Positions 810-42,384 of a DNA stretch of 43,032 bases are shown one piece after another (position 1 is the stretch's first letter; each line of letters starts with the position of its first letter). The DNA comes from Chiloscyllium plagiosum (Eukaryota): the NCBI RefSeq assembly GCF_004010195.1, contig NC_057718.1, forward strand, positions 41,327,208 through 41,370,239, written 5' to 3'. Made by a program: the position numbers and the translations under genes. The notes below the pieces were generated by a model. That model made no database searches. It worked only from the letters and a program-made list of their open reading frames with translations, and was not told the DNA's origin.

Positions 810-2610
810 CAAAAAGTGTGGTGCTGAGAAAGCACAGCTGGTCAGGCAGAATCCGAGGGGCAGGAGCGTCGACTTATCAAGCATGAACTCTTCATTAGGA
901 ATGAGTGGGTGGCACAAGGAGGCTGAAAGATAAATTTGTGTGGGGGGGGGTGGTGTTGGTGGGGCTGGGGAAAGGTAGCTGGGAACGCGATGGGTAGATG
1001 AAGATCGAGATAAAGATGTTAGGTCAGAGAGGAGGGTGTAGCGTACAGGTGGGAAGGAAGATGGACAGGTAAGACAGTTCAAGAAGGTTGTGCTGAGTTG
1101 GAAGGTTGGATCTGGGATAAGATGGGGGGGATGAGAAATGAGGAAACTGGTGAAATCGATATTGGTCTCATGTGGTTTGAGGGTCCCAAGGCGCAAGGTA
1201 AGGTGTTCTTCCTCCAGGCCTCAAGTGGCTAGAATTTGGTGATGGAGGAGGCCCAGGACTCGCATGTCCTTGGTGGATTGGGAGGGACAGTTAAAATGTT
1301 CAGCCATAGGACAGTGGGGTTGCTTAGTGCGTGTGCCCCAGAGATGTTCTCTGAAACATTCTGCAAGTTAGCGTTCTATCTCCCCAGTGTGGAGGGGACC
1401 ACACCGAGAGCAACGGACACAGTAGACAAAGTGTGTGGAAGTACAGGTAATTCTCTGTAGGGTGTGGAAGGATCCTTTGGGGCCTCGGATGGAGGGGAGG
1501 GGGAAGGTATGTGCGCAGGTTTTACACTTCTTGTGGTGGGAGGAGAGGATGTGCAGGGTGGGTTGGTGGGGGCCGTGGACCTAAGAAGGGTGTCGTGGAG
1601 GGAATGGTCTCTGCAGAATGCATATGGGGTGGGGAGGGAAATATATCCCTGGCGGTGGGGTCTGTTCGTAGGTGGTGGAAATGGTGGATGATGATGCGAT
1701 GTATCCAGAGGTTAGTGAGGTGGAAGATAAGGATCAGGCAGGTTCTGTCCTTGTTGTGATTGGAGGGGTGGGGTTCAAGGGAGGAGGTGTGGGAAATAGA
1801 GGAGATGCATTGGAGCATTTCGTTGACCACATGGGAGGGGAAATTGCAATCCTTGAAGAAGAAGGCCATCTGGGATGTTCTATGGTGGAATTGGTCCTCC
1901 TGGGTGCAGATGCAGTGACAGCAGAGGAATTGGAAATAAGAGATAGCGTTTCTACTGGAGGCAGGATGGGAGGAGGTGTAATCCAGGTAGCTGTGTGAGT
2001 TGGTGGGTTTGAAGCAGATGTCGATGTTTAGTCGGTCACCAGAATGGAGATGGAGAGGTCCAGGAAGGGGAGGGAGATGTGCGAGATGGTCCAGGTGAAC
2101 TTAAGGTCAATATGGAAGGTATTAGTGATGTTGATGAACTGTTCAACCTCCCTGTGGGAGCACGAGGTGGCATCGATACAGTCATCGATGTAACAGAGGA
2201 AAAGGGGGGGAATGGTGCCAATATAGCTGAGGAAGGTAGACAGTTCCACATACCAGATGAAGAGGCAGGCATAGATGGGTCCCATGCGGGTGCCCATGGC
2301 TATCCCTTTGGTCTGGAGGAAGTGGGAGGATTTGAATGAGAAATTGTTGAGGGTGATGACTAGTTCAGCCGAGGAAAAGGTGGGGAATGGTGCCGATATA
2401 GCTGCGGAAGGTAGACAGTTCCACATACCAGATGAAGAGGCAGGCATAGATGGGTCCCATGCGGGTGTCCATGGCTATCCCTTTGGTCTGGAGGAAGTGG
2501 GAGGATTTGAATGAGAAATTGTTGAGGGTGATGACTAGTTCAGCCAAAAGAATGGGTGTGTCAGTGGAAGAGTACTGATTGGGTCGGCAGGACACAAAGA
2601 GACAGAGGGT
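810..2610 (-). mobile_element. Penelope-like element (Neptune type), 5'-truncated, decayed RT plus GIY-YIG region and 3' terminal region
   Basis: Minus ORFs give the RT motifs ELVITLNNFSF..QTKGIAMGTRMGP..ACLF, YIDD and LKFTWTIS..LPFLDLSI, the linker HHFHHLRTDPTARDIFP and the C-terminus RLGTLKPHETNIDFTSF. The terminal region at 810-905 holds a degenerate HHR (ctaatga...gataagtc). Confidence 0.9.
2196..2545. repeat. 175-bp tandem duplication inside the PLE RT
   Basis: 2196-2370 and 2371-2545 align with 4 substitutions by eye. Confidence 0.95.
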
Positions 2611-4671
2611 GGTGGTGCATACAAAAACATGATGGACATGCAAGAGGCCAGAATTGGAGAGCCCAGACACCTTGAACATCTGCTGAGCTGGAATAGATTA
2701 CAGAGATAGGGAAAGGCAAGACTATCGAAAATGTGAAGCTAGCTGCTGGATGAAGAAGACCTGCCAGATTTAATATTGAGGGCCTATACTTTGGGCAGCT
2801 TTCATCTATTCCTAGCTGTTCTGGACCTAACCTATTTGGGCCTAATTTTTAACCTTGGATTTTTTTTTTCTCTTTTTCTGATGTTTAAAAAACTGGAATA
2901 TGACATCAGAAAAGAGATAAAGATCCAATTCTTGTAATTTTGAAAATGGCTTCTGCCCCAGATTTATATTTTGTTCTAGTTCTGAAGGTTTTTTTGGTTT
3001 AATTTGGAGAATTGCATTTGTACACTGTGACTTGCCATAGTCATGTGACCTCATGGCTGCTTTTGGTTTAGAGGAAAAGGCCATTAAAGTTTATATATGG
3101 AACAAGTTTATCTCCACCCTTGAGAAGAAAGGGTGGTAGATTCTCAACCTACTGTGAAAAGTAGCAATGCTTCAGAATTTGTTAACAGGAAATATACTTA
3201 TTTCAACACAAGAAAACATGGTTATTTTTAACTTGGGCTGAATTGAAAGATGTCACTGCTTTCAGGTATTACACTCGATAACTTACTTGTGAACTCATGA
3301 AGCTCATGTTCAATTTTAACAGGATGATTTGAGTGGCCATGGCTACTTTTCTCCTTACATTAGCTGTTCCAGTTGCTTCAAAATCAAAACACACTGTGAG
3401 TTTGGACTTTCAAATACTATTGTTAAAAAACGGAGGGGTGAGGTCTGTTGGCGATGAAGTTGTCTGGCTCCATTGGTTTCATGTACCTACAAAAATAAGG
3501 GCTTCCGATACCACTGATCCTCCAGGGATTGACTCCTTTATATAATGACTGCAAGTGCAGCATAGTCTTTCACTGTCTAAGCTAACACTGCTGTACAGTA
3601 TTAATATTAACATTCCACAAACCCATCCAAAAACCCCATGATGCTTTGGTATTGAGGGAAATTCCTAAAACACAACGAGTTCACAGGATTTTGGAATGGT
3701 GAAAACTTGTAATGTCCTGCCGACACTCCTGAAGTACAACCTCTATTCCAGTTAACAAAGAATTTGCTATTGTTGGATACATCAGCTATGTAAGTCCACA
3801 AATCAGCACTGTTTCTTGAAAAACAGAGCCGCAGTGTATCACTACATTTTTCAGCCTTGACATATATACTTCAGAGTTTAAGGCCAAGAATAAAAGTTGT
3901 CTCCAGAGAGTTTAAAGACAAAAATTTAGCAAGCTCCTAAAGTCATTAAACACATTTTAGCATTATGTGCTGTGACAGTCTCGTGGATGATTAAACATGA
4001 AAGGCTAAGATTAATACAACATGCTATTTGCTCTGTGAATTCAAGCTTCCAAAATTATTTGAAGCATTATATGCTGCTCTCATTTCATTTAGCTCAAATA
4101 ATCAATTGAAACTAGATAGTAATTGGAAAGGAGTTATTTCCTTGTTCCAATGTTGCTCTGAAGAGTAAATTTTTACTTGTTAATGCTGATTCAACCTATT
4201 TCAGTTTTAAATTTCAGATTTTAATCCTGCAGTGTTTCAGAAATTGAATTACCAGCAGTTACCCCAATATGGCTAAATCTTGATAAAGGCAGAACTAATT
4301 TATGAAGAAATGTTATAAATGGATCAGGATTTCTAGATAACAAACGAAGTTGGGAATATTGCACCAGAACTTTATGTTTGGATTAGGTATAAATTCTTCC
4401 AATCTCCAGTGTATCTCAGTGCTGAATTGAGGCAAAGTCACTAAAGGATCAGTGATGTTTTTGAAGCTAATCTGCTCTTGTCAATTTGGTTGGGAGAAAG
4501 AAGGAGGACATTAAAAATGCACTTCATTTTAATCAGCCTTTGTGAGCAGTCCTTTATCAATAAATAGGAGTATAAGGAACATTTCCCAGCTACGCCTGGT
4601 TAAGGGAACCTTCCCTGCTGGCAACAGATATTGGGAATTGAAATATGCCAAGCAAAAAGTCAGACATAAAA

Positions 4672-4742
4672 ACGCACACACATACACACAAATATAAACA
4701 CAAACACACACATACATGCACACACTCTCACGCACACACACA
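4672..4742. repeat. Imperfect (CA)n microsatellite
   Basis: acgcacacacatacacaca...cacacaca. Confidence 0.85.
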
Positions 4743-5654
4743 TCCCCTACAGTTGACTCACAGGCCCTTGTTATGGATTTAGATAGGCAGTTAAGATGTA
4801 GGCAATTAAGATGAATGAGGTTGCTTATTCACCAGTTAAAGTGACATTTCTGGAGAGAAAGCTGAGCTTTGCACCCAGAGACTATAGGTTCCTAACTTGT
4901 AAGTGCAAATTGGGGTCCAATTATGCTATTTGATCCCAACAGCAATGTTTATTCTGGCTTCACTGGGTGACCAGCAGGATGGCAAGTGGGAGGGAGAGAT
5001 TACAGTAATCTTTTATCAAATTAAGGGCAGCACAAAGTGGATTGGGAACTAAAGAGAGCTGACTAGTAAGTTTCCTTGCTTTCTCTTTGGATCAAGGGAA
5101 AAAAAGAAACTACATAGAACTTAGCATCCCAGTTACTTGATCATTAAAGTCTTGGCAATTAAAATCTCCACTCATGGTAAATAATGAGACTGGAAGATCA
5201 GTAACTCTTTTTGGTGCACTTTCCTGCTGAACTAGTATTAATTTTTCTTCAAAGCGCTTGAACAATACCGTGAAAATATCTTAACCACTCCAGATCATGG
5301 ACAAACAGATAATAAATCAATAATTGGTTTCAATTTTATTACAGAAACTTGGTTGGATGACGTCAGTTTATGTAGAAAAGCTGATTGCACATTTGTGTAT
5401 AATATTCCTTTGGAATAGCATGTAGGTAATGAATAGAAGCTGAGCAAGTTTGGAATCCTTGTGAATGTGGGAGGAAAGCTGTCTAAGAAAACCTAAGAAC
5501 TGTATTAAGTATGTACTGGAACAGCAACAACTTACTTAAATTCCAAAATGCCTTTAAAGTTATAAAATATTCCAGGTTTGCTTAAAAGAGTAGGCCAATA
5601 GAGATGGAAAAGATTGAATTCCCAATGCTATTGAAGACCTTGGTTGAGGAAACA

Positions 5655-5820
5655 AATAAACAGAAGTAGTCCATTCAGCATCTTGAGTATGCTCTGCTAT
5701 TCTAGATCACAGGTGATCATTTACCTATGGCACCACATTCCTGCACTAACCCTTTATCCCTTGATGTGATTATTAACTAGAAATATATCAATCTTTCTCT
5801 TGAATGTACTTAATGACTAC
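5655..5820 (-). mobile_element. Old CR1 LINE 3' end
   Basis: agaagtagtccattcagcatcttgag... resembles the CR1 tail at 33950 (agaagtaaggccattcagcccatcgag). Confidence 0.6.
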
Positions 5821-6155
5821 ACTTGCATGCAGACACAGGGAGAATGTGCAAAAGGCCCCAAAGATTCATTCCAAGTTTGGCAGAGGTTCACCTGCATTTC
5901 CTTCAACCTGATTTACTGCATTCGTTGTTCCAGAGGTGGTCTCCTCTACATCAGAGAGAGGGAGCACAAACCCAGGCACCAGTACATGGAACATCTATGG
6001 TCCGTACGCTCCTATCAACCCCAAGTCTCGGTTGCCAGTCATTTGAACTTCCCCTCTTACTCCCCAAATGACATGTCCATCCTAGGCTTCCTCCACTGGC
6101 AAGATAAGGCCAAACCCAAATTGGATAAAGAACACCTCATCTTCCACTTCAGGAA

Positions 6156-6657
6156 TATGACAATGCTGCTCCTTTAACAAGGTTCTGTTGTCCTTGGTTT
6201 TTTTTAAGTGGGGTTGTAAAAGGCAGAGATTCTGATTTGTCTGGGATTTGGGATCTTTGCTATTGGCTAACAAATACTGTCCAAGCAACAATCAGGCAAG
6301 AGGCTTTTAGGGTTTTGTTTTTTGAAACAGTTATACAATGAAAGGGGAGCGGCCAGTTCTCTCAGTTCAGGGATTTTTCTAGTTTGGTTTAGTTTTAACT
6401 GGGGACCCAGAGAAGCTGCTTGAATTTACCATTTTGCAGGAAATCAGAATAGCTCTTTGTTAAGTTGCAGGAGATATTGTGTCGGTTAGGTTTTCATGTC
6501 GTTATTCTAAATTCTATTTTCTTTTGTTTGTGTTTCATTCCACGATGTTTAAATAAATTCTATTTTACTTGAAGCCAATTGGTTTGACCAGCTGCATCAC
6601 TCATGGGATATCCACCTTACATATGCCTGAAACAACAAGAAATGTTAGGGTCTGGGT
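6156..6657 (+). mobile_element. Probable LTR-like insertion splitting the PLE
   Basis: About 500 bp unrelated to the PLE, starting tatgac, with T-rich tracts and an aataaa near 6552. No intact 3' CA end or TSD seen. Confidence 0.4.
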
Positions 6658-6880: not shown

Positions 6881-6910
6881 GTCCTGATGAAGGGTCCCGT
6901 CCGAAACACA
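6881..6910 (+). ncRNA. Degenerate minimal hammerhead ribozyme
   Basis: CTGATGA-agggtcccgtcc-GAAAC, but the cleavage triplet is mutated (aca). Confidence 0.6.
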
Positions 6911-7388: not shown

Positions 7389-7425
7389 TGCTGTGGTTCT
7401 GTTCACCGAGCTGGAAGTTTTTGTT

Positions 7426-7465
7426 GCAAACGTTTCGTCCCCTGTCTAGGTGACATCCTCAGTGC
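7426..7465 (-). ncRNA. Minimal type I hammerhead ribozyme
   Basis: Minus strand reads gca-CTGAGGA-t-gtcacct-agac-aggggac-GAAAC-GTT-tgc. Confidence 0.75.
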
Positions 7466-7967
7466 TTGGGAGCCTCCTGTGAAGCGCTTCTGTGATGTTT
7501 CCTCCGGCATTTATAGTGGTTTGTATCTGCCGCTTCCGGTTGTCGGTTCCAGCTGTCCGCTGCAGTGGCCAGTATATTGGTTCCAGGTCGATGTGTTTGT
7601 TGTTGGAGTTTGTGGATGAGTGCCAAGCTTCTAGGAATTCCCTGGCTGTTCTTTGTTGGCTTGCCCTATAATGGTAGTGTTGTCCCAGTCAAATCCATGT
7701 TGCTAGTAGCCACACACGCAGACGACAAGCAACATGAATTCGACTGGGACAACACTACCATTATAGGGCAAGCCAAACAAAGAACAGCCAGGGAATTCCT
7801 AGAAGCATGGCACGCATCCACAAACTCCAACAACAAACACATAGACCTGGACCCAATATACCGGCCACTACAGCAGACAGCTGAAACTGACAACCGGAAG
7901 CGGCAGGGACAGGCCACTATAAATGCCGGAGGAAACACCACAGAAGCCCTTCACAGGAGGCTCCCAA

Positions 7968-8008
7968 GCACTGAGGATGTCACCTAAGACAGGGGACGAA
8001 ACGTTTGC
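7968..8008 (+). ncRNA. Minimal type I hammerhead ribozyme
   Basis: gca-CTGAGGA-t-gtcacct-aagac-aggggac-GAAAC-GTT-tgc; stem I is gca/tgc. Confidence 0.75.
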
Positions 8009-8157
8009 AACAAAAACTTACAACTCGGCGAACAGAACCACAGCAACAACACATTTATGACCAAAACAAAGTTACTCAAATTATGAAGGAATGAGGAATG
8101 ACGAGAGGATATTGCAAATATATACATTGATATTTTCCTTTGAAAAATACTGAGATA

Positions 8158-8214: not shown

Positions 8215-8281
8215 TATTGTCGATAATAAACTGAAAAGCAAAAGATCTGCAATGTTAACTTGAAAGAACATTGTCCAAATA

Positions 8282-8494
8282 TAGCGGACAGCTGGAACTG
8301 ACAACCGAAAGCGGCAGATACAAATCACTATAAATGCCGGAGGAAACATCACAGAAGCGCTTCACAGGAGGCTCCCAAGCACTGAGGATGTCACCTAGAC
8401 AGGGGATGAAACGTCTGCAACACAAATTCCCAGCTCGGCGAACAGAACAACAACAACGAGCACCCGAGCTAGAAATCTTCTCACAAACTTTGAA
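8282..8494 (+). mobile_element. Third copy of the Poseidon-type PLE terminal region
   Basis: Direct repeat of about 7870-8047 with an extended 3' end (gagcacccgagctagaaatcttctcacaaactttgaa). Confidence 0.9.
8379..8418 (+). ncRNA. Minimal type I hammerhead ribozyme with GUC site
   Basis: gca-CTGAGGA-t-gtcacct-agac-aggggat-GAAAC-GTC-tgc. Confidence 0.8.
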
Positions 8495-8894
8495 ATCCAT
8501 AACTATTGTTTTTCCATAATTTTTGCACTTGGACATCTACCTATGGCTCCTCTGACCCTTTCTTACAATTTGCCTATACTGAAAGTGGGTGGCAAGGCCA
8601 ACTAACAAGCTTGACAAATTTAGTGGGATAGGACAACGAACTCCAAGGGAGAATACAAGTCATTTCTGCTAAGTTTGCATACGTGTAAAACTCCACCATC
8701 AATCTCTGTTTCTATTAGGACAACCTTTTCTCACCAATTTTATGAACCAGAATGATCGTACTCAAAATTAAATGCTGAAAATATATATGTAAATAAATAT
8801 GTATTAAAATATAAAATATAGCAATGGTTTAATATTTACTTTTCAAACTTACTTAAGTTTTACATAACAGTAGCTATTTTAAAAACTTATTTAT

Positions 8895-9035
8895 TGGCTG
8901 AATTAAATAGAGTTTTGATTGACAAATAAGTCATAGCATATATGAGAAAGTAGAGCTGAAGTCAGAGTTGGATTAGCCATGATGTTATCAGATGAGGAGG
9001 AGGATCGAGGGGCCAAATGGCCTACTACTGCTTTC
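8895..9035 (+). mobile_element. CR1 LINE 3' tail
   Basis: ttagccatgat...tcgaggggccaaatggcctactactgct matches the tail at 31070-31130. Confidence 0.7.
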
Positions 9036-11556
9036 TTTTGTACAAGAGAATGATCTGATGACGTAAGATACAGGGTGAATGCAAGTACCTTCCCTTGTTT
9101 GATCTAAATTGTGCAATTGAGGAGGCCCGTTAAGGAACCACTTTGCACTGGTATTTTACCATTATTGGGTGTTTTTCCTTTGCCTCCACCCAACATGTGT
9201 AGAGGCCATCAGACTAACAGTGGTAGACATCTGCACAGCGGGCCAGGGGAGCTGGAGAAACCATGCTTCACTGTGGCCCACTCGGATGAAAAGCCATAAC
9301 TCAGCTTGTGAATAAGTTTATGAGGGGTTTTCCCTTCAATTGGATAGCCCTGCCAAATTCAGGCTACTTTTTAATGTATCACTTCTACATAGGGAGAGAA
9401 CGATGCTTCCATGCTGAGGCAGTGCTCACCTGCCTGCCTTGGCAGTGCCCACCTCTACCAATAGGGCAGCCCTCTGACATTACTGGGCCCTTCTGAAATA
9501 GTAGGATTGGGGCCCACTTACTGTCCAATTATGAGGTTAATCCAGGAATATGTGCTGATATAGACAGACTTGGAATCCATATGAAGGCTGAACCCCCGTA
9601 TCTGGAGGTCCACCAGAACATCTGTCCATTTGTTTTGGCTTTAACAAGATTTCGCGACATTGATATTGGGGATACTGCATGGCATTTTGCCATTTCCATT
9701 ATAAAAATTTCAGTTGATGAAATCAATAATTGATTTTGAGAACTGTGTGAGCTAAAATAACTGCAGCAACTTGAAATACTGCATCTAGCCAACTGGCATA
9801 GTGTCATTAGTCATATTCTGTACTGTAATTGCACATCCATTTGTGTAGAACTTCATATCTCTGCTCTAGTAGGTCAGATTATATTACATGCATGAAGTCC
9901 TGGTCTTTTCTCTGACAAACTAATTATACAGCACTTAATAACAGCACATTGGTGCCACAAACAGCTATGGATTATAGTGCTTGATAGAAAATTCAAGTGG
10001 AAATAATAATAGGCAAGTTTCGACAAACAGTGAAAGAAATGTATGACAGATTGTAGGTGGAATCTCTTTTAATTAAGTTTGTGTTCATTGATTGCAGGTG
10101 TGCAGCGAAGGGAAACTGATATCTATGTAACTTTGAAATGGTGTTATTTCACTTTGAGGCCATTAATCCAGCTGGATATTTGTCTGAAGGTAGATCCAGG
10201 TCTAAAGACCTTAAATATTGGCCTCTCCATGTATGAGAGACCAAGTGTCCCGTCAGTGATAAATCAGCGAATTTGGACAGTGGTGAAGCAAGCTTTTCAG
10301 CCTGCTCCTTCGGCTAGTCAGGATCATAAATACTTCCAATCCAAACAGCATCAAGAAAATGCATTAACTGCCTCAAAATAGATCTTTTAAAAAAATTATG
10401 AAGCGGTAAAGCGATCCTGATAACTAAAACTGATATCTACCATTGTGTGAGAGTGAGCAGGTTTGAAAGGAGATCTGAATTTAAGCAGATTGAATGCTAA
10501 TTGCAGTAGACTATACTTTCTACTCACAAGGTTTACTCTGGAGACCCAGTGTTTCACAATATTGAAGAGTAATTAAATTTCTCTCCTGGAGCTGTAGAAA
10601 TACCAGACAGAAATTGTAATCACATTGATGCACTGGGATAAATAATTCATTGAAAGCTAAGGCTTTTTTGACAACAACTGAAATCAGTGAGGATAAATGG
10701 ATTAAATTCATAATATCATTCTAAAAAAGTATTGAGGATAACATTTTGAATTTTTTTTAATATACTTCCCTTTACTGCTTTGGCAACGCTTAGTCAATAT
10801 TCATCACCTGTCTCCTCCGCACATATACATCTTGAATCAGATGCCTTCTCTCTTTCAAGCATTGACAAAGTGTTCGTAGTTCCCTCAGAATGTCTGGGAC
10901 TTTACTCTGAGAATGTACTGGTCTGGAAAAAGATAAAAGTTGCAGAGCAATAAAAGATCATGCCATGGGGGATTATAGACACTGACTGCTGTAACAATAT
11001 TACATTTAACCAACCATTAAATGCCTGAGCGAAACAAAATACCCCCCATGTGCACTATGTGGATGAAATATTTAAATATGTACGAAACAATGGTTTCTCT
11101 TTTCCAACTTTGGTTTCTGTGCTTGAATATTTGGAAAATGATTTTTTTAAAAATAAGAAATAATGACCTGGATTTTCCTGTAATAGGTACATTGGTGGTA
11201 ACTTTGTAAGGTGGACATGAGTAAGACTATCTTCTGGTGGTGAATTAACAGCAAACCATAAATGTAAAATCATTGGGATATGTGGAGCATAGTAAATCAA
11301 AAATGGCAAAACAAATGGCTAATTCTGAGCAGATTTCCTTCTCTGGTTCATCCAAATTAGACTTTAGCACACAATTTAAAGTTTACAAGGCTTGTAATGA
11401 ATTATATGCCTACACACAGCAGGTTTCAGCACATCAGTCTGTTCCTGTGACCTCAGATGTATGTGTCTGTCTGTTTCCCAACACGCCTATCTCCCAAAAT
11501 CAACTTTAATCTATGATATCAAATCATTTAATATATTGTTCATTGTTTGAACATTA

Positions 11557-11890
11557 CTTTATTCATTCATGGGCATGAATATGTGCATCTCTGGCTGGGC
11601 CACCATTTATTGCCCATCTCTAATTGCCCTTAATCTGAGTGGTTAGAGCTGGAACCATCTCAGATGGCAGTTAAAAGTCAATCATATTGCTGTGGGTCTG
11701 GAGGCGTGTGTAGGCCAGATCAGGTAAGGACAGCAGATTTCCTTCCCTAAGGGACATTAGTGAATCAGATGTGTTTCTATAACAATTGATAGTTGGCATT
11801 GGAGTGGTTTTATTTTCAGACATTTTAATCAAATTCATCTGCCATGGTGGGATTCAAACGCTTGTCCCCAGCGGGTTCTGGACTCACCCA
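11557..11890 (-). mobile_element. tRNA-derived SINE with LINE-derived tail
   Basis: B-box-like gtttgaatccc on minus near 11850-11860. The tail (tttattcatt...catttattgcccatctcta) is shared with 20590-20655. Confidence 0.6.
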
Positions 11891-12599
11891 GAGACTGCCT
11901 TCTTTTGGTTAAAAGTAAGGAACTAAAATTCAATAAGGTCTGCTCGTGGGCTATGAAATCACAATAGATAATTACCCTGCAACCTGCAAATGTGATGCAG
12001 GCAGCATGTAAACTTGGTTCTGTGTGCCCGTATCCATGAATGCAGTTTGCTAAACACCCTGCTGAACTGCTGCAAATTCACCAGAGGATCCTACATCATA
12101 CGGAGCTAGTGTCAGTTAAATCTATCATGTACATCTTAAAGGTGAGGTGCATTTTGGCTGCATCAGCTGGAAAAGGTGCATGCAGAAAGAAGATACTGGA
12201 GCATTGGAACAGAAGGCCAGAGAGTGGCTCTTGCTTTCCCAACTACAGCATTGAAGACCTGAGTGCAGGAGGATGAAAGGTAGAGAGAGGGAATTCTTTG
12301 TAGGAGATCAGGAGACAGTCCAGACATCCACTGTGAAGGTAATGGGAGGACAGTGTCACAAAGACCAATGCCGGGAATCAAGCCTGAGAACTTTGATACT
12401 GAACTAGAAGTTCAATGATTTCACATGAGTTGTAGAGGTCAGTGCTATAGGCAACAACTGCTCTGCCAACCTTATATATTTTTCAATATTCCTTGTTCCC
12501 ATCCCTCAATTATCAACAATATACACAGGAATCAGGACTGATGCCTTAGATTCATGTGCTTCAACTTATCCTCACACATATATCTCGATTGCTCAGAGG

Positions 12600-12820
12600 A
12601 AAGGAAAACTGCTTTACGGAGTGAGACCTCGAATTTTTAGTGGACAGAGTGGTGGAGAGACAGGCAGACCTTTTCCCAGCTGTTTGATAGAGGAGGCCAT
12701 ACCAAAAGACGAAGCTAGTTTGGACCAAACTGCAGCCAGGCTCAATGCTGGGACCCAAATGAAGCAGGGCACCAGCGATGCAGGAACAAGATCAATGCTC
12801 TTCTGTACATTGTAAGAATA
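12600..12820 (+). pseudogene. Decayed Harbinger-associated Myb/SANT DNA-binding ORF
   Basis: Manual translation across stops and frameshifts gives FTE*DLEFLVDRVVERQADLFP...RRPYQKTKLVW / QTAARLNA / QRCRNKINALL. This fits the Myb/SANT-like pattern F...LE.L...V......LF...W......QC..K.N.L. Confidence 0.65.
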
Positions 12821-13169
12821 ATTGTCACCATTTGCTGAGAAATCAAGCTAAGACTCACAAGATGCATCTTATATAAATTCATGAGATGCAGGCATGGCCC
12901 TGTGTACAAAGTGACCAGTAGGAGCATGCAGGTCATAGGTGTCCCTGAGTTCCAAAGTGTTGAAGGGCCAGGATGGTGTGAGAGTTGATCCAAAAGCAGG
13001 AATGAGGATGCAGTGAGGCTAGTGGCTTGTCAAAGTCCACTTGCATGAAAGGTTTGAGGATCATGGTGGCTGTGGAGAATGCAGTGATGTTGTTGTAAAG
13101 AAGCAAGTCAATGATGGCTGGGTCAAGCATTCAATGAGCTATAGCTACCAGATACCCACTGTGATTTAC

Positions 13170-13357
13170 GCAGAGGTGGGTACTGCAGAAGATAGAGATT
13201 AGAATTAAGATTAGAGTGGTACTGGAGACACACAGCAGGTCAGGTAGCATCCAAGAAGCAGGGAAATTGATGAAGGGCTTTTGCCCAAAATGTTGATTTT
13301 CCTGCTCCTCGGATGCTACCTGACCTGCTGTGCATTTCCAGCACCACTCTAATCTTG
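13170..13357. mobile_element. Fold-back PLE-derived mini-element with a central degenerate HHR and 16-bp TSD
   Basis: Inverted arms at about 13207-13266 and 13297-13356 surround tgatga-agggcttttgccc-aaaatgtt. Perfect flanking repeat acccactgtgatttac at 13154-13169 and 13358-13373. Confidence 0.9.
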
Positions 13358-14004
13358 ACCCACTGTGATTTACCCATCCATGAATTTGCACCATCTAGTT
13401 TTACAGTGAAGGAGAGGACACTACATAAGGCAAGTTGGAGCTTTAGAGAGATTTAAATGCTTGGAATAGGGTTGTCACTGTTCAATGGCGAGGTTCCGAC
13501 TTGGCCATATACGACTTGAGAAAATCAGAAGGTATGTTCTCAGCATCCAGAGCCCGAGATTGTCCATTTTTCCCTTACTGTTTATACCACATGCAGGAGG
13601 AAAAACTTCCAACTATTGTGACATCCTCACTGACATGCTGTTATATGACAGAGTGACACAACATGTCCTGACATTCTAACTGGCCACTTACAGTGGGTTG
13701 AATTTTGTGCAGCTTGCATGAGCAGGATGAGAGGTGAGGGTGTCAAGTGCAAAATGGAAGGATCATGGCCTTCCATTAATGGGGAAAGTGGAGGACATTC
13801 TTTACGACCAAAGAGCAATTGTGCCACTTAAAGTTCCTACCATCATTGACATTTTAACAATGAATGGGGCCCTCTTTTGTATGGGGAGAGACTGACTGTT
13901 GAAGCTGATGGCCTCCCTGTGGCTTGATATGAATGGGGCACTATGCTGGGCAGGGCACCTGAATGGTAATGACAGCACATGCAGCAGCTCCTCTACCACA
14001 CCCC

Positions 14005-14303
14005 GGGCAGCAAGTCAGGGTGCCACCGTGGTTAGCACTTCTGCTTCATAGCACCAGAGACCCAGGTTCAACTCCAGTATTGGGCGACTCTCTGTGTGGA
14101 ACTTATACATTCTCGCTGTGTCAGATCACCTGTCGGCTTTGGGTTTCCTCCCACAGTCCAAAGATGTGCACGTTAGGTGGATTGGTCATAGTAAAAACCC
14201 CAAGCGGGGTTACTAGGGTGGGGGAGTGGGTCTGGATGGGATGGTTTTTGGAGGGCTCGTGCAGACTTGATAGGCTGAATAGCCTTTTTCTGCACTGTGG
14301 GGT
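14005..14303 (+). mobile_element. HE1-type (V-SINE) elasmobranch SINE
   Basis: tRNA-like head gtggttagcact...ggttcaactcc, core gggtttcctcccacagtccaaagatgtgcacgttaggtggattgg and a CR1-like tail. Confidence 0.85.
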
Positions 14304-15619
14304 CCTAGCTCTGACCCCACTTATCCTGCTGTGAGGTTTACAGCTGGGTGCAGTCGTACCAGTGCCCACTACTACCTGGGGAACTAAAATAATTAAGTTT
14401 CTTTTCAATGGGGAGCATAGTTGAACAGTCTCTGCAAAATATGGAGAGGTATGATTAATGGAGTAGGTTACTCACACTACATTTTCATCCTTCTTTTGAT
14501 GACCTTTGAGCAGTTTCTGTGCCATAGATATGGAATCGCATAGTGCAGCAACTCATGAAAATTTGGGCAAAGATGTGAAAATAAAATATATCAAATCACA
14601 TTCAGCATTCACAGAGAATAAACTGTAGTCACACCACAACGGGAGGTTAGTATGGGCTCTGAGAATCAAGGTTAAGGGAAGTACACAGCATCAGGTCAAA
14701 CTTTCAGTTTACTCTTGATACCCTTAACATTCCTTTGCACTTGACCTCCAAATGTCTTATGATAATGTGAATGGCCAACAGTTACACACTGGAATATTTT
14801 GTCATTGTATGCTGCATAAAATGCCAATGAAAACTGCAAATGTTAGATTCATTTTGTTGTTGCAACCACATCATCTGGTCTTTTTGCCAAACTGTATTCC
14901 CCCCCCGCGCCCCCTTTTAGCTTAAATAGTAACTATTCCACATAGACTGCAGCATTAACCAGAATAGAAACGATTGCACAGAAAGCTATCACGTATCAGA
15001 AGGATTCCGACAGTTTTGAAAATCTGGGCACGAAATTTAGAACAAAAATGACCATTTTGTGTGCATTGTTGGCTATTTTACACAAGGCACCAGGTTCCTG
15101 TGCAGAAATCTGCCAGGCTGGTTGCTTGGCATGGGCCACTTTCACCACGTTGAATCTGCGATGATGCCCTTAGTGTGTTTTAAATTCCCAATTAACCTGG
15201 CTTGTTGCTAAGCAGAGTACCCGCCACCGGCCCAGTTGGTACAATTGCAGTGGGGAAGGAAATGGCAGCCAGATGGTGGGCAAGCAACGCCCAAGATTTA
15301 GCAAGTGCCCCCGCCTTCAAATTCATCGATAAGGGAGCATCAACTCCAGCTTGACAAGTGATTTTTGATTTCTAAGTTAGGGAGTCACCTCCGATGGTCT
15401 ACCAGAGAGGGTTTTAGAGCATTTGCTGTGAATATCTGCTTGAAGTATACAGATGCATGAGAAAAACAGTTGCTCCCAGAAATGCATGCAGAAGCAGCAA
15501 ACTCTTTGGAAAACAGTTGAACAGAGAGAATAAGCGGAGATGACAGAAGCACAGAACAAGCAGCTGGAAGATGAAGTAGCAAGCAGTGGCAAAAGGGGTC
15601 TGTATATCAGTCATAACTA

Positions 15620-16330
15620 CCAAAAGTGTTCAGGACCTAACTCCCCAGCCAGAGCTCAGTGAGGGACAATGTAATTGACATTTACATGTCAGCAACGATA
15701 TCCTGTCTGAAATCTGCTGCAGCCAGAACTGCAACTTCGAAACAGAGCAAGGACACAATTGCCAATGACTGTGAAGGTCATTATAACTATGAATTAGAAT
15801 GCATCCACCTCCTTTTCAGTTTGGAGCTTGGGATATTTGCCACATCTTGCTGTTTAATTGCATCTGTTGCATGAAGGAAGTCCCTGATACTCTTCATTCA
15901 AAACAGCAAGCTCCATTTCATTCTTTCTTGTCAGAAAGCAATAGGTTGAATGAGTAGGCAGCTTTGAAAAGCTTACAAGCTTTACCAAGGTGTCAGGTGT
16001 CACTGGCTGAATGCATGTCACTTTTTGGGTGCTGCATGTCAACCCTTTGGTGTACTGCATCCGCAACATAAGTCCTTCAACATCCAAGTTATGTCTAACT
16101 ATAGGCAGTGAATCAAGATTTGTACAAGGCTTTCCATACATGAGCCAGTCATAATATGCCTTCTCTTCAAGAGTTGCTTTAAGAGCTGCTGGATGGCTTT
16201 GACTGGGTGCAGTTAGCTTCAATCAGTGATACCTTCTCTCAATGTTGAGAGCCATACTGTGGCATGTAACCACTCAACAGTATTATTACTGCTGCCACTA
16301 TGTTACAAACATAGTATGCAGAATGAAAGA
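15620..16330 (+). pseudogene. Decayed PIF/Harbinger DDE transposase (HARBI1-like)
   Basis: Manual translation gives colinear blocks ELSEGQC..LHVS....EIC, LPMTVKVIITMN*NASTSF, DICHI...CCMKEVPDTL, FEKLTSFTKVSGVTG*MHV, SFNIQVMSN, GWL*LG and IITAATMLQ. They match recalled Harbinger motifs LPVAVKVTVALNFYASGSFQ, GFPRVQGAIDCTHV, SINVQLVCD and IIVACCMLHN. Confidence 0.8.
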
Positions 16331-16489
16331 GGTATGCCTTGTATTTTTGGAGGCTATTTAGCTTCTCTTAGTTTTAAGATTTGATAAGTGGACAGACCTT
16401 TGTACAAGTTTAATCTGGAAATCTTCCTCTGTTTTCATTCTTAGCAATCATCAGAAAGAATAGAGCCTTATTCCTGCTTTTTAAAAAAG

Positions 16490-16880
16490 AATTCTCTGTA
16501 TTTCTCCAACTAGTTTTTGTCCGTCCTCTTCCCTCTTGTACAAATTGTGGCTCCTGTCAGTTAATAGATCCACAGGTGCCAGGTGTCTTTCAATAACCCA
16601 CTCAAGTGGACATTCTTGTCATTCATTGCATTTCAACCAATATAATGAATGCTTGAAAATTATTCAATAACAGTGAAACCTTATTCTGTCCTTACCTGGC
16701 ATTCACTTGTATCCCAGGGCTTCTGGAGAGCAAAAAAATATAAGAATCCAAATGCAAGCCAACTGCAGCAATTGCACAGTCTTTCTGGCTTAGGTTCTCA
16801 GCTCAGCTCTGCCAGAGACTGAACCTGGAATTTCCTCGGGAGGTTTACACTGTCCTAACTGACCGAGCATGGTTAGGGAA
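16490..16880 (-). mobile_element. Ancient SINE-like remnant
   Basis: B-box-like ccaggttcagtctc on minus near 16815-16828; otherwise highly diverged. Confidence 0.35.
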
Positions 16881-16939
16881 ATTGAAAGCTGCCCTTGAAG
16901 GGCAACCAATCACTTCCTAAGTCTCCCTTTAAAAATAAC

Positions 16940-22157: not shown

Positions 22158-22450
22158 CATTGTGAGTATTGGTTGAGTAAACCTTTTCCAAATTGCTTCC
22201 AATACATTTACCTCTTCCTTAAAAAGGGAGACCACGATAGTATAGAAAACTCCAGCTATCACCTCAACAATAGTCCAAATGACTGTAGCAAAATATCGCT
22301 ACTCTTATATTCTATTCCCCTTGCAATAAACAAGATTCCATTTATGTTCTTAAACTCTTGCTGTACCTGCATACTGACTTTCTGAGATTTTCTCACAGAA
22401 AGAATATGAATGCTTTTTGAAAGCTTTTGGTCTTTATGAGGTTACCTCCT

Positions 22451-22580
22451 CAACCACCTGATGAAGGAGCGGTGCTCCAAAAGCTAATGCTTCCAAATAA
22501 ATCTGTTGGACTATAACCTGGTGTTGTGTGGTTTTTGACTTTGTCCACCAAAGTCCAACACCGGCACCTTCAAGTCATGG
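22451..22580 (+). mobile_element. Short probable PLE terminal copy of a different family, with HHR-like motif
   Basis: cac-CTGATGA-a-ggagc-ggt-gctcc-aaaagc-ta-atg; the GAAA has become AAAA, consistent with CpG decay. Confidence 0.7.
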
Positions 22581-27365: not shown

Positions 27366-27431
27366 CTAATTACCCACCACGCCCCTATCGCTCCACACCC
27401 CTATCGCATCCCACACATCACAAATTCCTGG

Positions 27432-27528
27432 AGCAAGAACAGAAATTGCTGCAAAAGCTCCATAGGTTTGGCAACATCTGTGCAGAGAAATCAGAATTAA
27501 CGTTTTGAGTTGAGCGACCTTTCCCAAG
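27432..27528 (-). mobile_element. Short decayed PLE terminal copy with degenerate HHR and 8-bp TSD
   Basis: Minus strand reads cttgggaaaggtcgctcaactcaaaacgttaattctg...cagatgttgccaaacct. attcctgg flanks it at 27424-27431 and 27529-27536. Confidence 0.6.
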
Positions 27529-30479: not shown

Positions 30480-31150
30480 TTTGACTTGCAGGTTGAGTCC
30501 ATGGTTAAAAAAGTAAATGTAATGTTGTCATTTATTTCAAGAGGGTTGGAATGTAAAAGCAGTGAGGTGTTATGAAGACTTTATAAAGCTCTGGTTAGGC
30601 CCCATTTAGAATACTGTGTCCAGTTTTGGGCTGAGCATCTTAGGAAAGACATACTGACACTGGAGCATGTCCAGCGGAGATTCACACGGTTCATCCCTGG
30701 AATGGTAGGCCTAACATACAATGAACGGCTAAGAATCCTGGGATTGTATTCGTTAGAGCTCAGAAGGTTGATGGGTGATCGAATAGAAACTTACAAGATA
30801 ATGCATGGCTTAGAAAAGGTGGACACTGGGAAATTGTTTCCGTCAGGTAGGGATACTAGGATTCATGGGCATAGCCTTGGAATTAGAGGGGGTCAATTTA
30901 GAATGAAAATGAGGAGACATTTCTTCAACCAGAGAGTGGTGGGTCTGTGGAATTCACTGCCACAGAGCACAGTGGAGGCTGGGATGTTAAATGTCTTCAA
31001 GGCAGAGACTGATAAATTCTTAATCTCGCAAGGAATTAAGGAATACAGGGTAAGTCGCGTTGAAATGCCAATCAGCCATGATTAAATGGCGGAGTGGACT
31101 CGATGGGCCAAATGGCCTTACTTCCACTCCCATTTCTTATAGTCTTATGG
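30480..31150 (+). mobile_element. CR1 LINE 3' region, same subfamily as 33918-35470
   Basis: ORF 30702..31085 closely parallels ORF 33989..34393; tail cttatagtcttatgg. Confidence 0.92.
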
Positions 31151-31154
31151 TAAA

Positions 31155-33917: not shown

Positions 33918-35470
33918 ATAAGACCATAAGACCATAAGACATAGGAGCAGAAGTAAGGCCATTCAGCCCATCGAGTCCACTCTGCCGTTCAATCATGGCT
34001 GATGGGCATTTCAACTCCACTTACCCGCATTCTCCCCATAGCCCTTAATTCCTGTGACATCAAGAATTTATTAATTTCTGCCTTTAAGACATTTAGCATC
34101 CCAGCCTCCACTGTCGTCTGTGGCAATGAATTCCACAGGCCCACCACTCTCTGGCTGAAGAAATGTCTCCGCATTTCTGTTCTGAATTTACCCCCTCTAA
34201 TTCTAAGGCTGTGTCCACGGGTCCTAGTCTCCTCGCCTAACGGAAACAATTTCCTAGCGTCCACCCTCTCCAAGCCATGTATTATCTTGTAAGTTTCTAT
34301 TAGATCTCCCCTTAATCTTCTAAACTCCAATGAATACAATCCCAGGATCCTCAGCCTTTCCTCATATGTTAGACCTACCATTCCAGGGATCAACCATGTG
34401 AATCTCCGCTGGACATGCTCCAGTGCCAGTATGTCCTGCTTGAGGTGTGGGGACCAAAACTGGACACACAGTACTCCAAATGGGGCCTAACCAGAGCTTT
34501 ATAAAGTCTCAGTAGCACAACAGTGCTTTTATATTCCAACACTCTTGAGATAATTGACAACATTGCATTCACTTTCTTAATCATGGACTCAACCTGCATG
34601 TTTACCTTTAGAAAATCCTCAACTAGCACTCCCAGNNNNNNNNNNNNNNNNNNNNNNNNNNNNNNNNNNNNNNNNNNNNNNNNNNNNNNNNNNNNNNNNN
34701 TGTGAACAGCTGCGGCCCCAACACTGAACCCTGCAGGACACCGCTTGTCACCGGCTGCCATTCCGACAATGAACCTTTTATCCCAACTCTCTGCCTTCTG
34801 TCAGACAGCCAATTCTCAATCCATACCAGTAGCTCACCTTGAACACCATGGGCCCTCACCTTGCTCAGCAGCCTCCCATGTGGCACCTTATCAAATGCCT
34901 TTTGGAAGTCTAGGTAGATAACATCCACTGGGTTTCCCTGGTCTAACCTACTTGTCACCTCTTCAACGAACTCCAACAGGTTTGTCAGGCATGATCTCCC
35001 CTTACTAAATCCATGTTGACTTGTTATAATCCGACACTGCTCTTCCAAGAATTTAGAAACCTCATCCTTAATGATGGATTCTAGAATTTTACCAACAACC
35101 GAGGTTAGGCTAATTGGCCTATAATTTTCTATCTTTTGCCTTGATCCTTTCTTGAACAAGGGGGTTACAACAGCGATCTTCCAATCATCCGGGACTTTCC
35201 CTGACTCCAGTGACTTTTGAAAGATCTCAATCAACGCCTCCATTATTTCCTCAGCCACCTCCCTCAGAACTCTAGGATGTAGCCCATCGGGGCCGGGGGA
35301 TTTATCAATTTTAAGACCTTTTAGCTTTTCTAGTACTTTCTCTTTTGTAATGGCAACCATACTCAACTCAGCCCCCTGAATCCCTTTAATTGTTGGGATA
35401 TTACTCATGTCTTCCACTGTGAAGACTGATCCAGAGTACTTATTAAGTTCTCCTGCTATTTCCTTATCTA
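33918..35470 (-). mobile_element. Young 5'-truncated CR1 LINE with largely open RT frame
   Basis: 264-aa ORF 34623..35417 with KSPGPDGLHPRVL, NYRPISLTSVVGK, YLDFQKAFDKVPH and QGSVLGPQLF; (ataagacc)n tail at 33918. Confidence 0.95.
34636..34700. other. Assembly gap (65 N)
   Basis: Run of N characters. Confidence 1.
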
Positions 35471-36210
35471 TTGCTGACTTTTGCTCTATTGAAGGTGGGA
35501 AGTGGAGATATTGTTAATGACCATGGGAAATTGGCAGACGTGCTGAATGATCACTTTGCTTCAATACTCACAGCAGAAAAGGAGGCTAGCTTGTTGGGAG
35601 TCCCAAAGAAATTAAGAGGCTTAGAAAAGAGTCAAAATAAAATCAGCTTATTCATCATCAATAGTGGGACATTAATGGAACTAAAGAGTGACACATCCTC
35701 AGGACCTCATCTATGGGTATTAAAGGAGATAGGAGAGCACATTGCCAATGCCCTAACAATATCTTTCAGAGTTCCCTGCATTAAGGAATTGTACCTCTGG
35801 CTTGGAAATTTGTTCATGTCACTCCACTCTTTAAGAAGGGTGATAGAGGGAAACCAGGGAATTACAGATCTAACATCTGTGACGGAGAATTGTTAGTGGT
35901 CTATCAACTTGAAAAATATCGGTTAATCAGGAAGAATCAGCATGGATTTAAAAATGGTATGTCATGCTTGACAACCTCATAGAGTTGCTTGAAAAAGTGG
36001 CAAAGGTGGTGGATAGAGGTAAGTTGATGGGTGATGTTGATATTTTCATACAATTTCATAGCATCCCTACAGTGTGGAAACAGGCTCTCCGGCTCAAGAA
36101 GTCCACACCACTCCTCCGGAGATTATCCCACCCAGATCCATTCCCCTACCCTATATTTACACCTGACTAATGCACCTAGCCTTCACATCCCTGAACACTA
36201 TGGGTAACTT

Positions 36211-36350
36211 AGGGGAGAAAGTGAGGTCTGCAGATGCTGGAGATCAGAGATGGAAATGTGTTGCTGGAAAAACGCAGCAGGTCAGGCAGCATCTAGGGAA
36301 CAGGAGAATCGACGTTTCGGGCATTAGCCCTTCTTCAGGAAGGGCTAATG
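36211..36350 (-). mobile_element. Young Neptune-type PLE terminal copy with short inverted 5' end
   Basis: Nearly identical to 42142-42238; gaagggctaatg at 36339-36350 is the reverse complement of cattagcccttc. Confidence 0.9.
36308..36341 (-). ncRNA. Minimal hammerhead ribozyme, intact core
   Basis: CTGAAGA-a-gggc-taat-gccc-GAAAC-GTC; stem I is weak. Confidence 0.75.
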
Positions 36351-36370
36351 GGCAACTATGGGCAACTATG

Positions 36371-36643
36371 GCACTAGGTAGGCTCAGAGCAAATGAGTGC
36401 AAGGGCAGTGAGTGAACAGGCTGGAGTTGCAGCATGGTGCAGTCAGCTGGGGTGCTGTTCCTGAGCACTAAGTGTTCTTGCTGCAGCATTATAGTGGTAG
36501 CTGCCAGTACAGCCTGAGGTACAGCACTGAAGTGCAGAAGTGTCCTCTAAGTGAATTGGTGATGGCATAGAATCCCGACTGTGTGGAAACAGGCCATATG
36601 CCCTCACAAGTCCACACTGACCCACTGAAGACTATCTCACCCA
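36371..36643 (+). repeat. 273-bp copy of 38203-38475
   Basis: 4 substitutions in 273 bp by eye; duplicated ORFs 36443..36625 and 38275..38457. Confidence 0.95.
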
Positions 36644-37324: not shown

Positions 37325-37455
37325 AGGCGAAAGTGAGGACCGCAGATGCTGGAGGTTAGAGTGGAGAGTGTGATGCTGGAAAAGCACAGAAGGTCAGGCA
37401 GCATCCAAGGAGCAGAAAAATCAACGTTTCAGGCAAAAGTCCTTCATCAGGAATG
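37325..37455 (-). mobile_element. Short PLE terminal copy with HHR and 12-bp TSD, inserted in CR1
   Basis: Minus strand reads CTGATGA-aggacttttgcct-GAAAC-GTT. Flanks are agggatgcagat (37313-37324) and agggatgtagat (37456-37467). Confidence 0.88.
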
Positions 37456-38397
37456 AGGGATGTAGATGTTATACTGCAGTTAAACAAAACCTTAGTTAGA
37501 TCTCACTTGCATTACTGTGAGCAGATCTTAGGAAGGATGTTTTGGCCTTGGAGGGAGTTCAATACAGGTTTACAAGGATGATATCTTGACTTTACAGATT
37601 AAACAAATTGTCTTTATTCTCTAGACCATTAAAAGGTGAGTGGGTGATCTAATCAAGCTCTTCAGGATATTAACAGGGAATGACAGGGTAGATAAAGATA
37701 AACTATTTCCAGTAGTTGATTCTCAAATCAGGAAGCATTGTCACAGAATTGGGGCCCGACCATAAAGTCGAAATGTTAGCAAACACATTCAAAGAGTAGC
37801 GGAGGTTTGGAACTCTTTTCCTCAAATACTGATTGAAGTTAATTCAATTGTTAAACTTAAATCTGGGAGAGACAAATATTTATGAAGTAAGGGTACCAAG
37901 GTTTTATGGGCCCAAGCCAGGCCTACGGAGATAGGCCACAGAACAGCCATGAATTCTTTGTATTGTGGAGCAAGCTCAAGGGCTTGAATGACCCATCCTT
38001 CCTATGTTCCTATGACCCTCTGTATGAAGGTTACCTCTTTCGACTTGACTGACAGCCAAGATTGAGTACAACTGTCAGCCATGCCAAACTTACTGGCTTT
38101 GTTCCTGTGCTAAGTAAGACAACAGTGCTGTGAAATTGTGTCTCTGGCCGAGGGGGTAAAGCACAAAAAGGCAGGGTTAGGCAATGCAAGACAGGGGTGT
38201 GAGCACTAGGTAGGCTCAGAGCGAATGAGTGCAAGGGCAGTGAGTGAACAGGCTGGAGTTGCAGCATGGTGCAGTCAGCTGGGGTGCTGTTCCTGAGCAC
38301 TAAGTGTTCTTGCTGCAGTATTATAGTAGTAGCTGCCAGTACAGTCTGAGGTACAGCACTGAAGTGCAGAAGTGTCCTCTAAGTGAATTGGTGATGG

Positions 38398-38734
38398 CAT
38401 AGAATCCCGACTGTGTGGAAACAGGCCATATGCCCTCACAAGTCCACACTGACCCACTGAAGACTATCTCACCCAGACCTATTCCTTTACCCTGTTACTT
38501 TTTCTCCTGACTAATGCACCTAACCCACATATCCCTGGATATATGGGCAATTTAGCATGGCCAATTCACCTAACCTACACATCTTTGGACTGTGGGAGGA
38601 AACTGGAGCACCTGAGGAAACCCAAGCAGACATGAGGAGAATGTGCAAACTCCACATAGGCAGTTGCCCGAGAATTGAACCCGCATCCCTGGCACTGAGG
38701 CAGCAGTGCTAACTACTGAGCCACTGTACTGCCC
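38398..38734 (-). mobile_element. HE1-type SINE, near full length
   Basis: Minus strand starts gggcagtacagtggctcagtagttagcactgctgcctcag; core cacatctttggactgtgggaggaaac on plus. Confidence 0.9.
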
Positions 38735-41700: not shown

Positions 41701-42024
41701 GGTAATCTCAAACCTCAGTTTTCAGTGCAGCTCTTACTGTTCAGATTTTATACTGAGAATCTCGGCACAGCCCAACTCTTACCTTACACAGCCAGGCGTA
41801 TCAATTTGAGGAGAATAGCTGAGAGATGGTAGCTTGCTTCTACCATCAGTGCCAAGTACTAACACTGGAATATTTGAGAAATAAGATTCAATGAGAATGG
41901 GTAATAGTTTGAGGGTTACAATTTGAGTAATGACACCCAGAGGAAAAATAGAGTGTACAAATGTAAGACTGCACTGGGAAATATGATCAAAGTATGGAGA
42001 ACAGGCAAAATAATTAAAGGCTCT

Positions 42025-42141
42025 TAGAGTCATAGAGTCATAGAGTTTTAAAGCACGGAAACAGACCCTTCGGCCCAACTCGTCCATGCTGACCAGTTCT
42101 CCCAATCTAATCTAGCCCCATTTGCCAGTACTTGGCCCTCT
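42025..42141 (-). mobile_element. CR1 LINE 3' tail
   Basis: (agagtcat)n tail and ggaaacagacccttcggcccaactcgtccatg. Confidence 0.8.
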
Positions 42142-42384
42142 AAAGATGGAAATGTGTTGCTGGAGAAGCGCAGCAGGTCAGGCAGCATCTAGGGAACAGG
42201 AGAATCGACGTTTCGGGCATTAGCCCTTCTTCAGGAATGAGGAAAGTTTGTCCAGCAGGCTAAGATAAAAGATAGGGAGGAGGGACTTGGGGGAGGGGCG
42301 TCGGAAATGTGATAGGTGGAAAAAGGTCAAGGTGAGGGTGATAGGACAGATGGGGGTGGGGGCGGAGAGGTCGGGAAGAAGATT
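42142..42384 (-). mobile_element. Neptune-type PLE terminal region, inverted relative to 42526-43032
   Basis: Contains an HHR; 42337-42384 is a diverged reverse complement of about 42985-43032. Confidence 0.9.
42204..42238 (-). ncRNA. Minimal hammerhead ribozyme, intact core
   Basis: cattc-CTGAAGA-a-gggc-taat-gccc-GAAAC-GTC-gat. Confidence 0.75.

Follow-up and report, generated by a model that had tools for sequence, protein, structure and literature searches.

Twelve hammerhead motifs of four Penelope-like families

We analyzed a 43,032-nt stretch of the Chiloscyllium plagiosum genome (3.56 Gb), comprising positions 41,327,208 to 41,370,239 of NC_057718.1 and hereafter called the window, which is rich in repeats that include remnants of long interspersed nuclear element (LINE) reverse transcriptases (RT) and remnants from Penelope-like elements (PLEs). 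A preliminary description had claimed about 12 hammerhead ribozyme motifs from about four PLE families in this window, and indeed all 12 are present in the sequence and belong to four families, which we term A, B, C, and D. The minus-strand coordinates of that description are the 3' ends of the motifs, whereas sites are named here by the position of C3, which is also the zero point of all relative positions below. A full core is defined as CUGANGA, one extra base, helix II, GAAA, and a palindromic triplet. Six of the 12 sites carry a full core, three from family B (7462(-), 7971(+), and 8382(+)) and three from family A (36338(-), 37450(-), and 42234(-)), while core bases have been lost at 898(-), 6884(+), 13267(+), and 22033(+) (family A or A-like), 22458(+) (family C), and 27527(-) (family D). 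Family C deviates from the proposed CUGANGA-stem II-GAAAC-GUH core with GAAAG-CUA. The features of the window are as follows:

815-2697 (-): old PLE remnant with RT pieces (2613-2043), linker and GIY-YIG endonuclease (2043-1149), and a 3' repeat with the 898 motif; tblastn with full-length RT and endonuclease relatives, E 6e-65
871-898 (-): decayed family A core at the 3' end of the PLE remnant; G5 changed, GAAAC box lost
6884-6909 (+): family A-like core; CUGAUGA and GAAA kept, cleavage triplet lost
7389-8045 (both strands): palindromic family B insertion; arms 91% alike, C-terminal endonuclease fragment, two outward-facing hammerheads
7429-7462 (-): full family B core; helix I of 3 bp, triplet GUU
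7918-7923 (+): TATAAA box 53 nt upstream of C3, a distance shared by 8382 and 7462
7971-8005 (+): full family B core; 411 nt from 8382 on the same strand, the closest candidate dimer pair of the window
8280-8495 (+): family B copy with long tail; the ATG in its core (8388) opens a 36-codon frame reaching the copy end
8382-8415 (+): full family B core; G10.1-U11.1 wobble, triplet GUC
13176-13356 (both strands): short family A palindrome; minus arm long-tailed and coreless, plus arm short-tailed with core
13267-13294 (+): decayed family A core; C3 lost at the joint, two CpG-type changes
22024-22158 (+): family A stub with long tail; core 22033-22060 lacks U4 and G16.2
22445-22575 (+): stub of family C; its core (22458-22486) has the palindrome AGCU and the triplet CUA, and a CpG-type change has removed G12
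27425-27527 (-): family D stub; core 27499-27527 heavily decayed, 79% identity to an intact family D copy, E 1e-14
36214-36341 (-): long-tailed family A stub, flanked by target-duplication-like sequence; full core at 36311-36338 with a shortened helix I (starts at -3)
37326-37458 (-): long-tailed family A stub, flanked by target-duplication-like sequence; full core at 37423-37450 with a weakened helix II
42144-42384 (-): inverted arm of family A; full core at 42207-42234, an initiator-like motif whose A is 42238 (-4), and TTATCT at -34
42385-42525 (unstranded): non-PLE filler between arms, about 140 nt, shared with six other loci
42518-43032 (+): GIY-YIG endonuclease region of a young PLE and the start of its 3' repeat, running into N at the window end

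A strict descriptor requiring a helix II of 4 bp matched the window twice and none of 30 shuffled windows, and without the triplet it matched three times against a shuffle mean of 0.03. Six matches were obtained when helix II was set to 3 bp, a count taken on the unshuffled window. Allowing one mismatch also yielded six matches but a shuffle mean of 3.5, and the decayed copies were therefore accepted by homology rather than by descriptor. Comparison of eight family representatives with the window disclosed no additional hammerhead family in it, and an Rfam scan returned no hammerhead among its 12 matches (E up to 5). At least four further hammerhead families with other helices I and II exist elsewhere in the genome (L112:8820(+), L128:7025(-), L157:250(-), and L159:4883(-)).

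Structure of the motifs

Stem II had been described as differing between families yet remaining paired. Across families this is correct, as the sequence and length of helix II vary while pairing is kept, although the family B helix II includes an internal A-G mismatch. Helix I behaves similarly: in the eight representatives, which were picked on the core pattern alone, 23 of 24 combinations at its first three positions are Watson-Crick pairs, compared to a mean of 9.0 over all permutations (p 5e-5). The commonest form of family A has a U-U mismatch at the third pair. The helix III dinucleotide following GAAA is CG in 90 and GC in 17 of 152 cores from 1.55 Mb, with 39 CpG-decay forms and 6 others, and both CG and GC create a 4-base palindrome (ACGU or AGCU). 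An extra base separates A9 from helix II in all six full-core matches even though it was optional in the descriptor, and the 10.1-11.1 pair is G-C in four of these and G-U in two. Helix III has no loop, which places the motifs outside the canonical type I hammerhead of Rfam. The combination of a paired helix I and a palindromic helix III identifies them instead as minimal type I hammerheads (min-HHR), the kind described in 2014, and they are predicted from their sequence to self-cut. A folding model gave the active monomer fold a probability of ≤0.02; its energies favor neither the monomer nor the dimer fold, so that the model carries little weight here.

The min-HHR of metazoan PLEs (Cervera and De la Pena 2014, PMC4209133) resemble the present motifs in their core, the extra base after A9, G10.1-C11.1, a short helix I, and a loopless palindromic 15.2-16.2, and likewise occur mostly as single dispersed copies with nearby pairs on opposite strands. 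According to that report, their helix III can form only between two copies. Unlike the min-HHR described there, families A, C, and D have a helix II of 4-5 bp.

Penelope-like origin

The assignment of the motifs to PLEs was confirmed, as RT or endonuclease remnants lie directly upstream in all four families. Searches (tblastn) with full-length relatives located the endonuclease remnant at 42518-42901(+) as well as the RT and endonuclease pieces at 2613-1149(-), which adjoin the 898 motif on its upstream side; long copies of families B, C, and D at other loci have endonuclease or linker remnants upstream; the GIY-YIG profile matches have E values of 1e-4 to 7e-4. Most of 49 longer relatives contain RVT_1 and some contain GIY-YIG. 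The order of RT followed by a C-terminal GIY-YIG domain (2613-1149 in the window) is that of an endonuclease-bearing (EN+) PLE. Candidate full-length elements chosen from long open frames were discarded, as they ran into N and the frames were runs of N.

Canonical EN+ PLE insertions (Craig et al. 2021, PMC8557442) share the inverted arms, one-sided tail, and C-terminal GIY-YIG with the copies studied here, but the latter consist mostly of only ribozyme and tail. A linker zinc finger, which marks Neptune and Nematis (PMC8557442), occurs in family A as CX4CxxC (loci L077 and L078), fitting CX2-5CxxC. In family B the ATG falls within the core, where helix II begins, and an ATG in the core is likewise found in PAc, a Poseidon element of Anolis (Frangieh et al. 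2024, PMC11167929). Cleavage by PAc has been shown with its protein; for the present hammerheads, self-cleavage is predicted from sequence. Animal non-LTR retrozymes (bioRxiv 10.64898/2026.07.22.740005) are also non-autonomous, hammerhead-bearing, and related to the pseudo-long terminal repeats (pLTRs) of PLEs; they form head-to-tail arrays, whereas the window holds single stubs and inverted pairs. No head-to-tail array of hammerhead units was found in the window; about 235 nt of other sequence lie between the copies with 7971 and 8382. Family B is a putative Poseidon element by its likeness to PAc, and family A is a candidate member of the Neptune clade by its linker motif.

Several other repeats were noted in the window. 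A second PLE endonuclease remnant lies at 5770-6177(+) (E 2e-17), with unrelated sequence between it and the 6884 motif. The PLE RT remnant contains a 175-nt tandem duplication (2196-2545), and a 273-nt direct repeat (36371-36643 and 38203-38475) is 99% alike at a spacing of 1.8 kb; each is either a recent duplication or an assembly overlap. Two inverted LINE 3' ends (30484-31151(+) and 33923-34601(-)) are 84% alike and 2.8 kb apart, the second of which continues over a run of N into a 296-codon RT frame (34623-35513(-)).

Genomic load and decay

The preliminary description had supposed a very large genomic load, and a genome-wide pattern scan bore this out. A general full-core pattern, which leaves pairing unenforced, matched 208,214 times (58 per Mb) compared to 653 times for the reversed pattern, and a single family A pattern had 93,494 exact matches with none for its control. 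In samples totaling 1.41 Mb, helix II together with the palindrome was present in 95 of 98 pattern matches, and helix I as well in 66 of the 98; extrapolation from the latter gives about 140,000 helix-complete cores in the genome. A run of plus-strand matches in the genome-wide list was initially read as a regional strand bias, but the reverse pattern showed it to be an effect of listing. The window holds six full cores where the genome average predicts 2.5 (p 0.04, copies clustered), and is thus nearly typical of this genome. The roughly 200,000 full cores compare to about 4,000 in coelacanth and 9,000 in Xenopus (PMC4209133), counts obtained with different descriptors, and the sections of that report on which we draw name no shark. 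Our literature search, which covered sources other than subscription papers and supplements, found no hammerhead count for a shark. Lunse et al. 2017 reportedly arrived at a total of about 150,000 motifs. The kind is already known, and the copy number is 20 to 50 times the published coelacanth and Xenopus counts, with the difference in descriptors applying here as well.

Among family A arms spanning the motif, 50 of 136 are intact. The 86 losses include CpG transitions in 65 cases (49 with CpG transitions alone and 16 with CpG and other changes), other changes in 15, and changes of helix II only in 6. The three CpG sites over G12, the palindrome, and the cut site are 80% kept, and non-CpG core bases are 97% kept versus 94-96% for the flank, a figure that includes subfamily differences. 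Cores in dispersed copies are thus shown to decay neutrally, mostly at CpG. With respect to whether the core is better conserved than neighboring PLE sequence, these figures indicate that the motif is conserved between families in active elements, but that dispersed copies keep it no better than their flanks.

Clustering of 5' ends at helix I

Most copies are stubs of 95-140 nt, and their 5' ends cluster at helix I. The arms were gathered by their 3' part and not by the core. Of the family A arms reaching +10, 145 of 209 end between -14 and +10, most often at -4 (25 arms) and -3 (20 arms), while only 3 of the remaining 64 end in the following 20 nt. In family C, 51 of 64 arms end in the helix I cluster. 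The same boundary is seen in 87 RNA reads and 20 contigs, which break off at the -4 base. Upstream of C3, a TATAAA occurs at -33 (D), -38 (C), -50 (B3), and -53 (B); the values for D, C, and B3 each come from one or two copies. Among 48 long arms of family A, 42 have TTATCT at -33 to -36, and 40 have an initiator-like motif surrounding A(-4). The position of the helix I cluster about 30 nt downstream of TATA-like boxes suggests that the copies derive from the start of an uncut RNA.

The 3' ends are equally structured. Copies have two alternative 3' ends about 35-40 nt apart, yielding a long or a short tail. Exactly one long tail is present in 49 of 61 short palindromes (p 1e-6), and in a separate sample inspected by eye, all 18 two-armed loci had inverted arms with a 30-40-nt tail at one end. 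PAc, whose RNA is primed internally at two sites with uncut RNA as the main template (PMC11167929), likewise has two 3' ends, 30-40 nt apart, and as in our data no read ends at the cut site. Short copies ending at helix I are found here, whereas none is described for PAc in the sections of that report on which we draw. Within the same bounds as for the shark count, our literature search found no report of PLE copies starting at helix I.

We consider it likely, with a probability of roughly 0.7, that these are minimal hammerheads in the pLTRs of four PLE families, carried mostly by stubs that were reverse-transcribed from the 5' end of uncut RNA and nearly inactive in host transcripts. In the proposed mechanism, a TATA-like box about 30 nt upstream would set the start of transcription at the first helix I base or immediately ahead of it, with that base itself as the predicted RNA start in families A and D. 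Reverse transcription would be primed by the PLE protein at two sites located 90-135 nt further downstream, in the way demonstrated in vitro for an anole PLE. Priming in the first pLTR would create a short copy from the tail to the RNA start, which could be inserted alone or as an inverted pair. The ribozyme would require a second copy, with a 4-bp intermolecular helix III, and probably also the PLE protein, and for this reason a lone stub that is transcribed as part of a host gene would seldom cleave. Selection would have kept the motif in active lineages and not in dispersed copies.

Three points weigh against the start-site portion of this model. A cap-derived G before the -4 base was not enriched (5 of 25); the 5' ends coincide with short microhomologies, which are able to create a cluster without any RNA start; and family B, with 10 copies, is too small for the 5'-end test. 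It is possible, albeit not the probable explanation, that the cluster reflects a stall or fold-back of reverse transcription at the ribozyme, or joining by microhomology, rather than an RNA start. TTC/GAA or GA microhomologies are found at many joints, ATT is common to target and element in several direct insertions (by eye), and the missing cap-derived G fits this explanation too. However, the edge of the cluster is sharp on the 5' side of the structure, whereas a stall would be expected on its 3' side, family C has the same cluster without ATT, and TATA or initiator-like motifs stand at the expected distance in four families. Microhomology or fold-back can account for part of the 5'-end cluster.

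It should be noted that 42260-42270(-), like the long arms of several family A subfamilies, has a pyrimidine tract with a terminal AG at 20-26 nt upstream of the core, similar to a 3' splice site. The Penelope element of Drosophila has an intron whose end falls at helix I (PMC4209133). Among 279 arms, a single one has its end at -25.

Possible copies from cleaved templates

If some insertions had been copied from ribozyme-cut RNA, they should start exactly at the cleavage site. We consider even a small share of such copies unlikely. Family A starts are in fact more frequent at +28 than at +25 (398 versus 154), 5 to 7 of 279 sampled arms start at the cut site by eye, and the raw counts of family C are 74 at +29 versus 49 at +26. 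However, CAG precedes the site in 65 of 100 listed family A cases, and the first 20 CAG loci include 19 inverted joints; in 13 of the loci the partner arm starts at -2, with the first two helix I pairs serving as microhomology. Among the 74 family C cases, 17 resemble GT slippage and 10 a single recurrent variant (by eye), without which the excess vanishes; none of 89 sampled arms starts at +29, and the junctions from +24 to +35 look flat by eye. A cut template and a microhomology joint give an identical product, so the footprint at the cut site is inseparable from microhomology. No clear fossil of cleaved templates was found at the family A and C junctions, and starts at the cut site involve at most about 2% of arms.

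Effect on host transcripts

The preliminary description had further proposed that the motifs affect overlapping transcripts, a proposal that our data do not support. Long genes were placed by Pfam exon matches, from which gene extent and strand were inferred, and 80 stretches between exons of 8 intervals provided 778 kb of intron sequence without N. These contained 22 sense and 30 antisense full cores (p 0.33; 22 versus 28 in a strict set), at 67 per Mb compared to 73 per Mb in random stretches, and the orientation of cores did not differ from that of other arms of the same families (p 0.64, approximate table). Strong purging of sense intronic cores is therefore excluded, while a modest purge or conditional activity remains compatible with these numbers. 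Some of the intron data do point the other way. Individual genes vary in their sense to antisense ratio (1:8 in one and 6:1 in another), the interval of the sense share (0.30-0.59) permits a purge of up to about half, and three control repeats with 155 sense and 113 antisense copies make the cores lean antisense by comparison (Fisher p 0.047). As an observation in its own right, the sense excess of these LINE and short interspersed nuclear element (SINE) copies is significant for no single repeat. In mammals, intronic LINE and SINE copies have the opposite orientation bias.

Partners for dimer formation are scarce. A same-strand partner was present within 1 kb of 2 of 66 helix-complete cores and within 5 kb of 10 of 66, which are lower bounds from 10-kb stretches. 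An inverted arm that would pair with the core in read-through RNA lies upstream of 25 of the 66. In a single-cell poly(A) run, 1,217 family reads mapped to 42090-43032 in both orientations, 93% of them continuing into other sequence, and among these reads there was no place where many RNA molecules begin or end. Since this library type would hide ribozyme ends, the absence of a pile-up is a weak test. A second RNA run (X6) had no reads on the element, and no RNA is listed for 9000-17000 of the window. A search for host exons in 143 kb was negative: of 926 non-repeat frames, the 91 chosen for splice-like signals had no Pfam match over the cut-off. Published activities are low as well. Minimal monomers were inactive and dimers slow (PMC4209133), the anole PAc motif needs its protein for cleavage (PMC11167929), 1 of 9 Xenopus retrozyme dimers cleaved (bioRxiv 10.64898/2026.07.22.740005), and the dimer result of Lunse et al. 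2017 has been relayed in a review (PMC6765202).

Given these results, an active load, in which sense intronic copies cut host pre-mRNAs via a cis or trans partner or the PLE protein and thereby affect expression, seems improbable. In its favor are the extrapolated 140,000 helix-complete cores, the presence of the family in RNA in both orientations with most reads running into other sequence, the slight antisense lean relative to control repeats, and the depletion of tandem retrozymes from Xenopus introns (bioRxiv 10.64898/2026.07.22.740005). Opposed to it are the near-even strands of intronic cores at normal density, their likeness in orientation to other arms, the lack of a pile-up of read ends, the few dimer partners, and the low published rates, and by extrapolation a 1.6-Mb gene would hold about 45 sense cores. 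A conditional version, in which the PLE protein or abundant element RNA would switch on the helix-complete hammerheads, any two of which could pair within a family through their common 4-base palindrome, such that sense intronic copies cut pre-mRNAs, strikes us as a long shot; if true, it would amount to genome-wide transcript cutting that arose from stubs copied off the start of the element's RNA. Lastly, even though the relaxed descriptor also matches shuffled windows and Rfam has no match, the idea that a short pattern was matched here by chance can be set aside, as it is contradicted by the 208,214 matches against 653 for the reversed pattern and by covariation in helices I, II, and III.

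A composite element at the window end

The inverted arm, filler, and endonuclease region at 42144-43032 recur as a composite with 99.7-99.9% identity over 889 nt at six loci (L066-L071) on five other contigs. Two of these, L069 and L066, have both arms present along with target-duplication-like flanks of their own. The six other copies are long-tailed where the window copy is short-tailed, and the filler region has no RNA coverage. As five of the seven copies run into N at the same base, assembly effects are possible. The composite resembles a young non-autonomous element that is bounded by terminal inverted repeats and multiplies as one unit.

Implications

The kind of hammerhead is known, and the load in this genome is remarkable. 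Whereas an effect upon host RNA is without support so far, the origin of the stubs at an RNA start is a testable lead. The intron results suggest that a vertebrate tolerates such a load because the lone motif is nearly inert. If the stubs do copy the start of uncut RNA, the ribozyme would lie within the transcript's first 35 bases, a cut there would take off the capped leader along with, in family B, the start codon, and hundreds of thousands of junctions in this genome would record how PLEs copy themselves.

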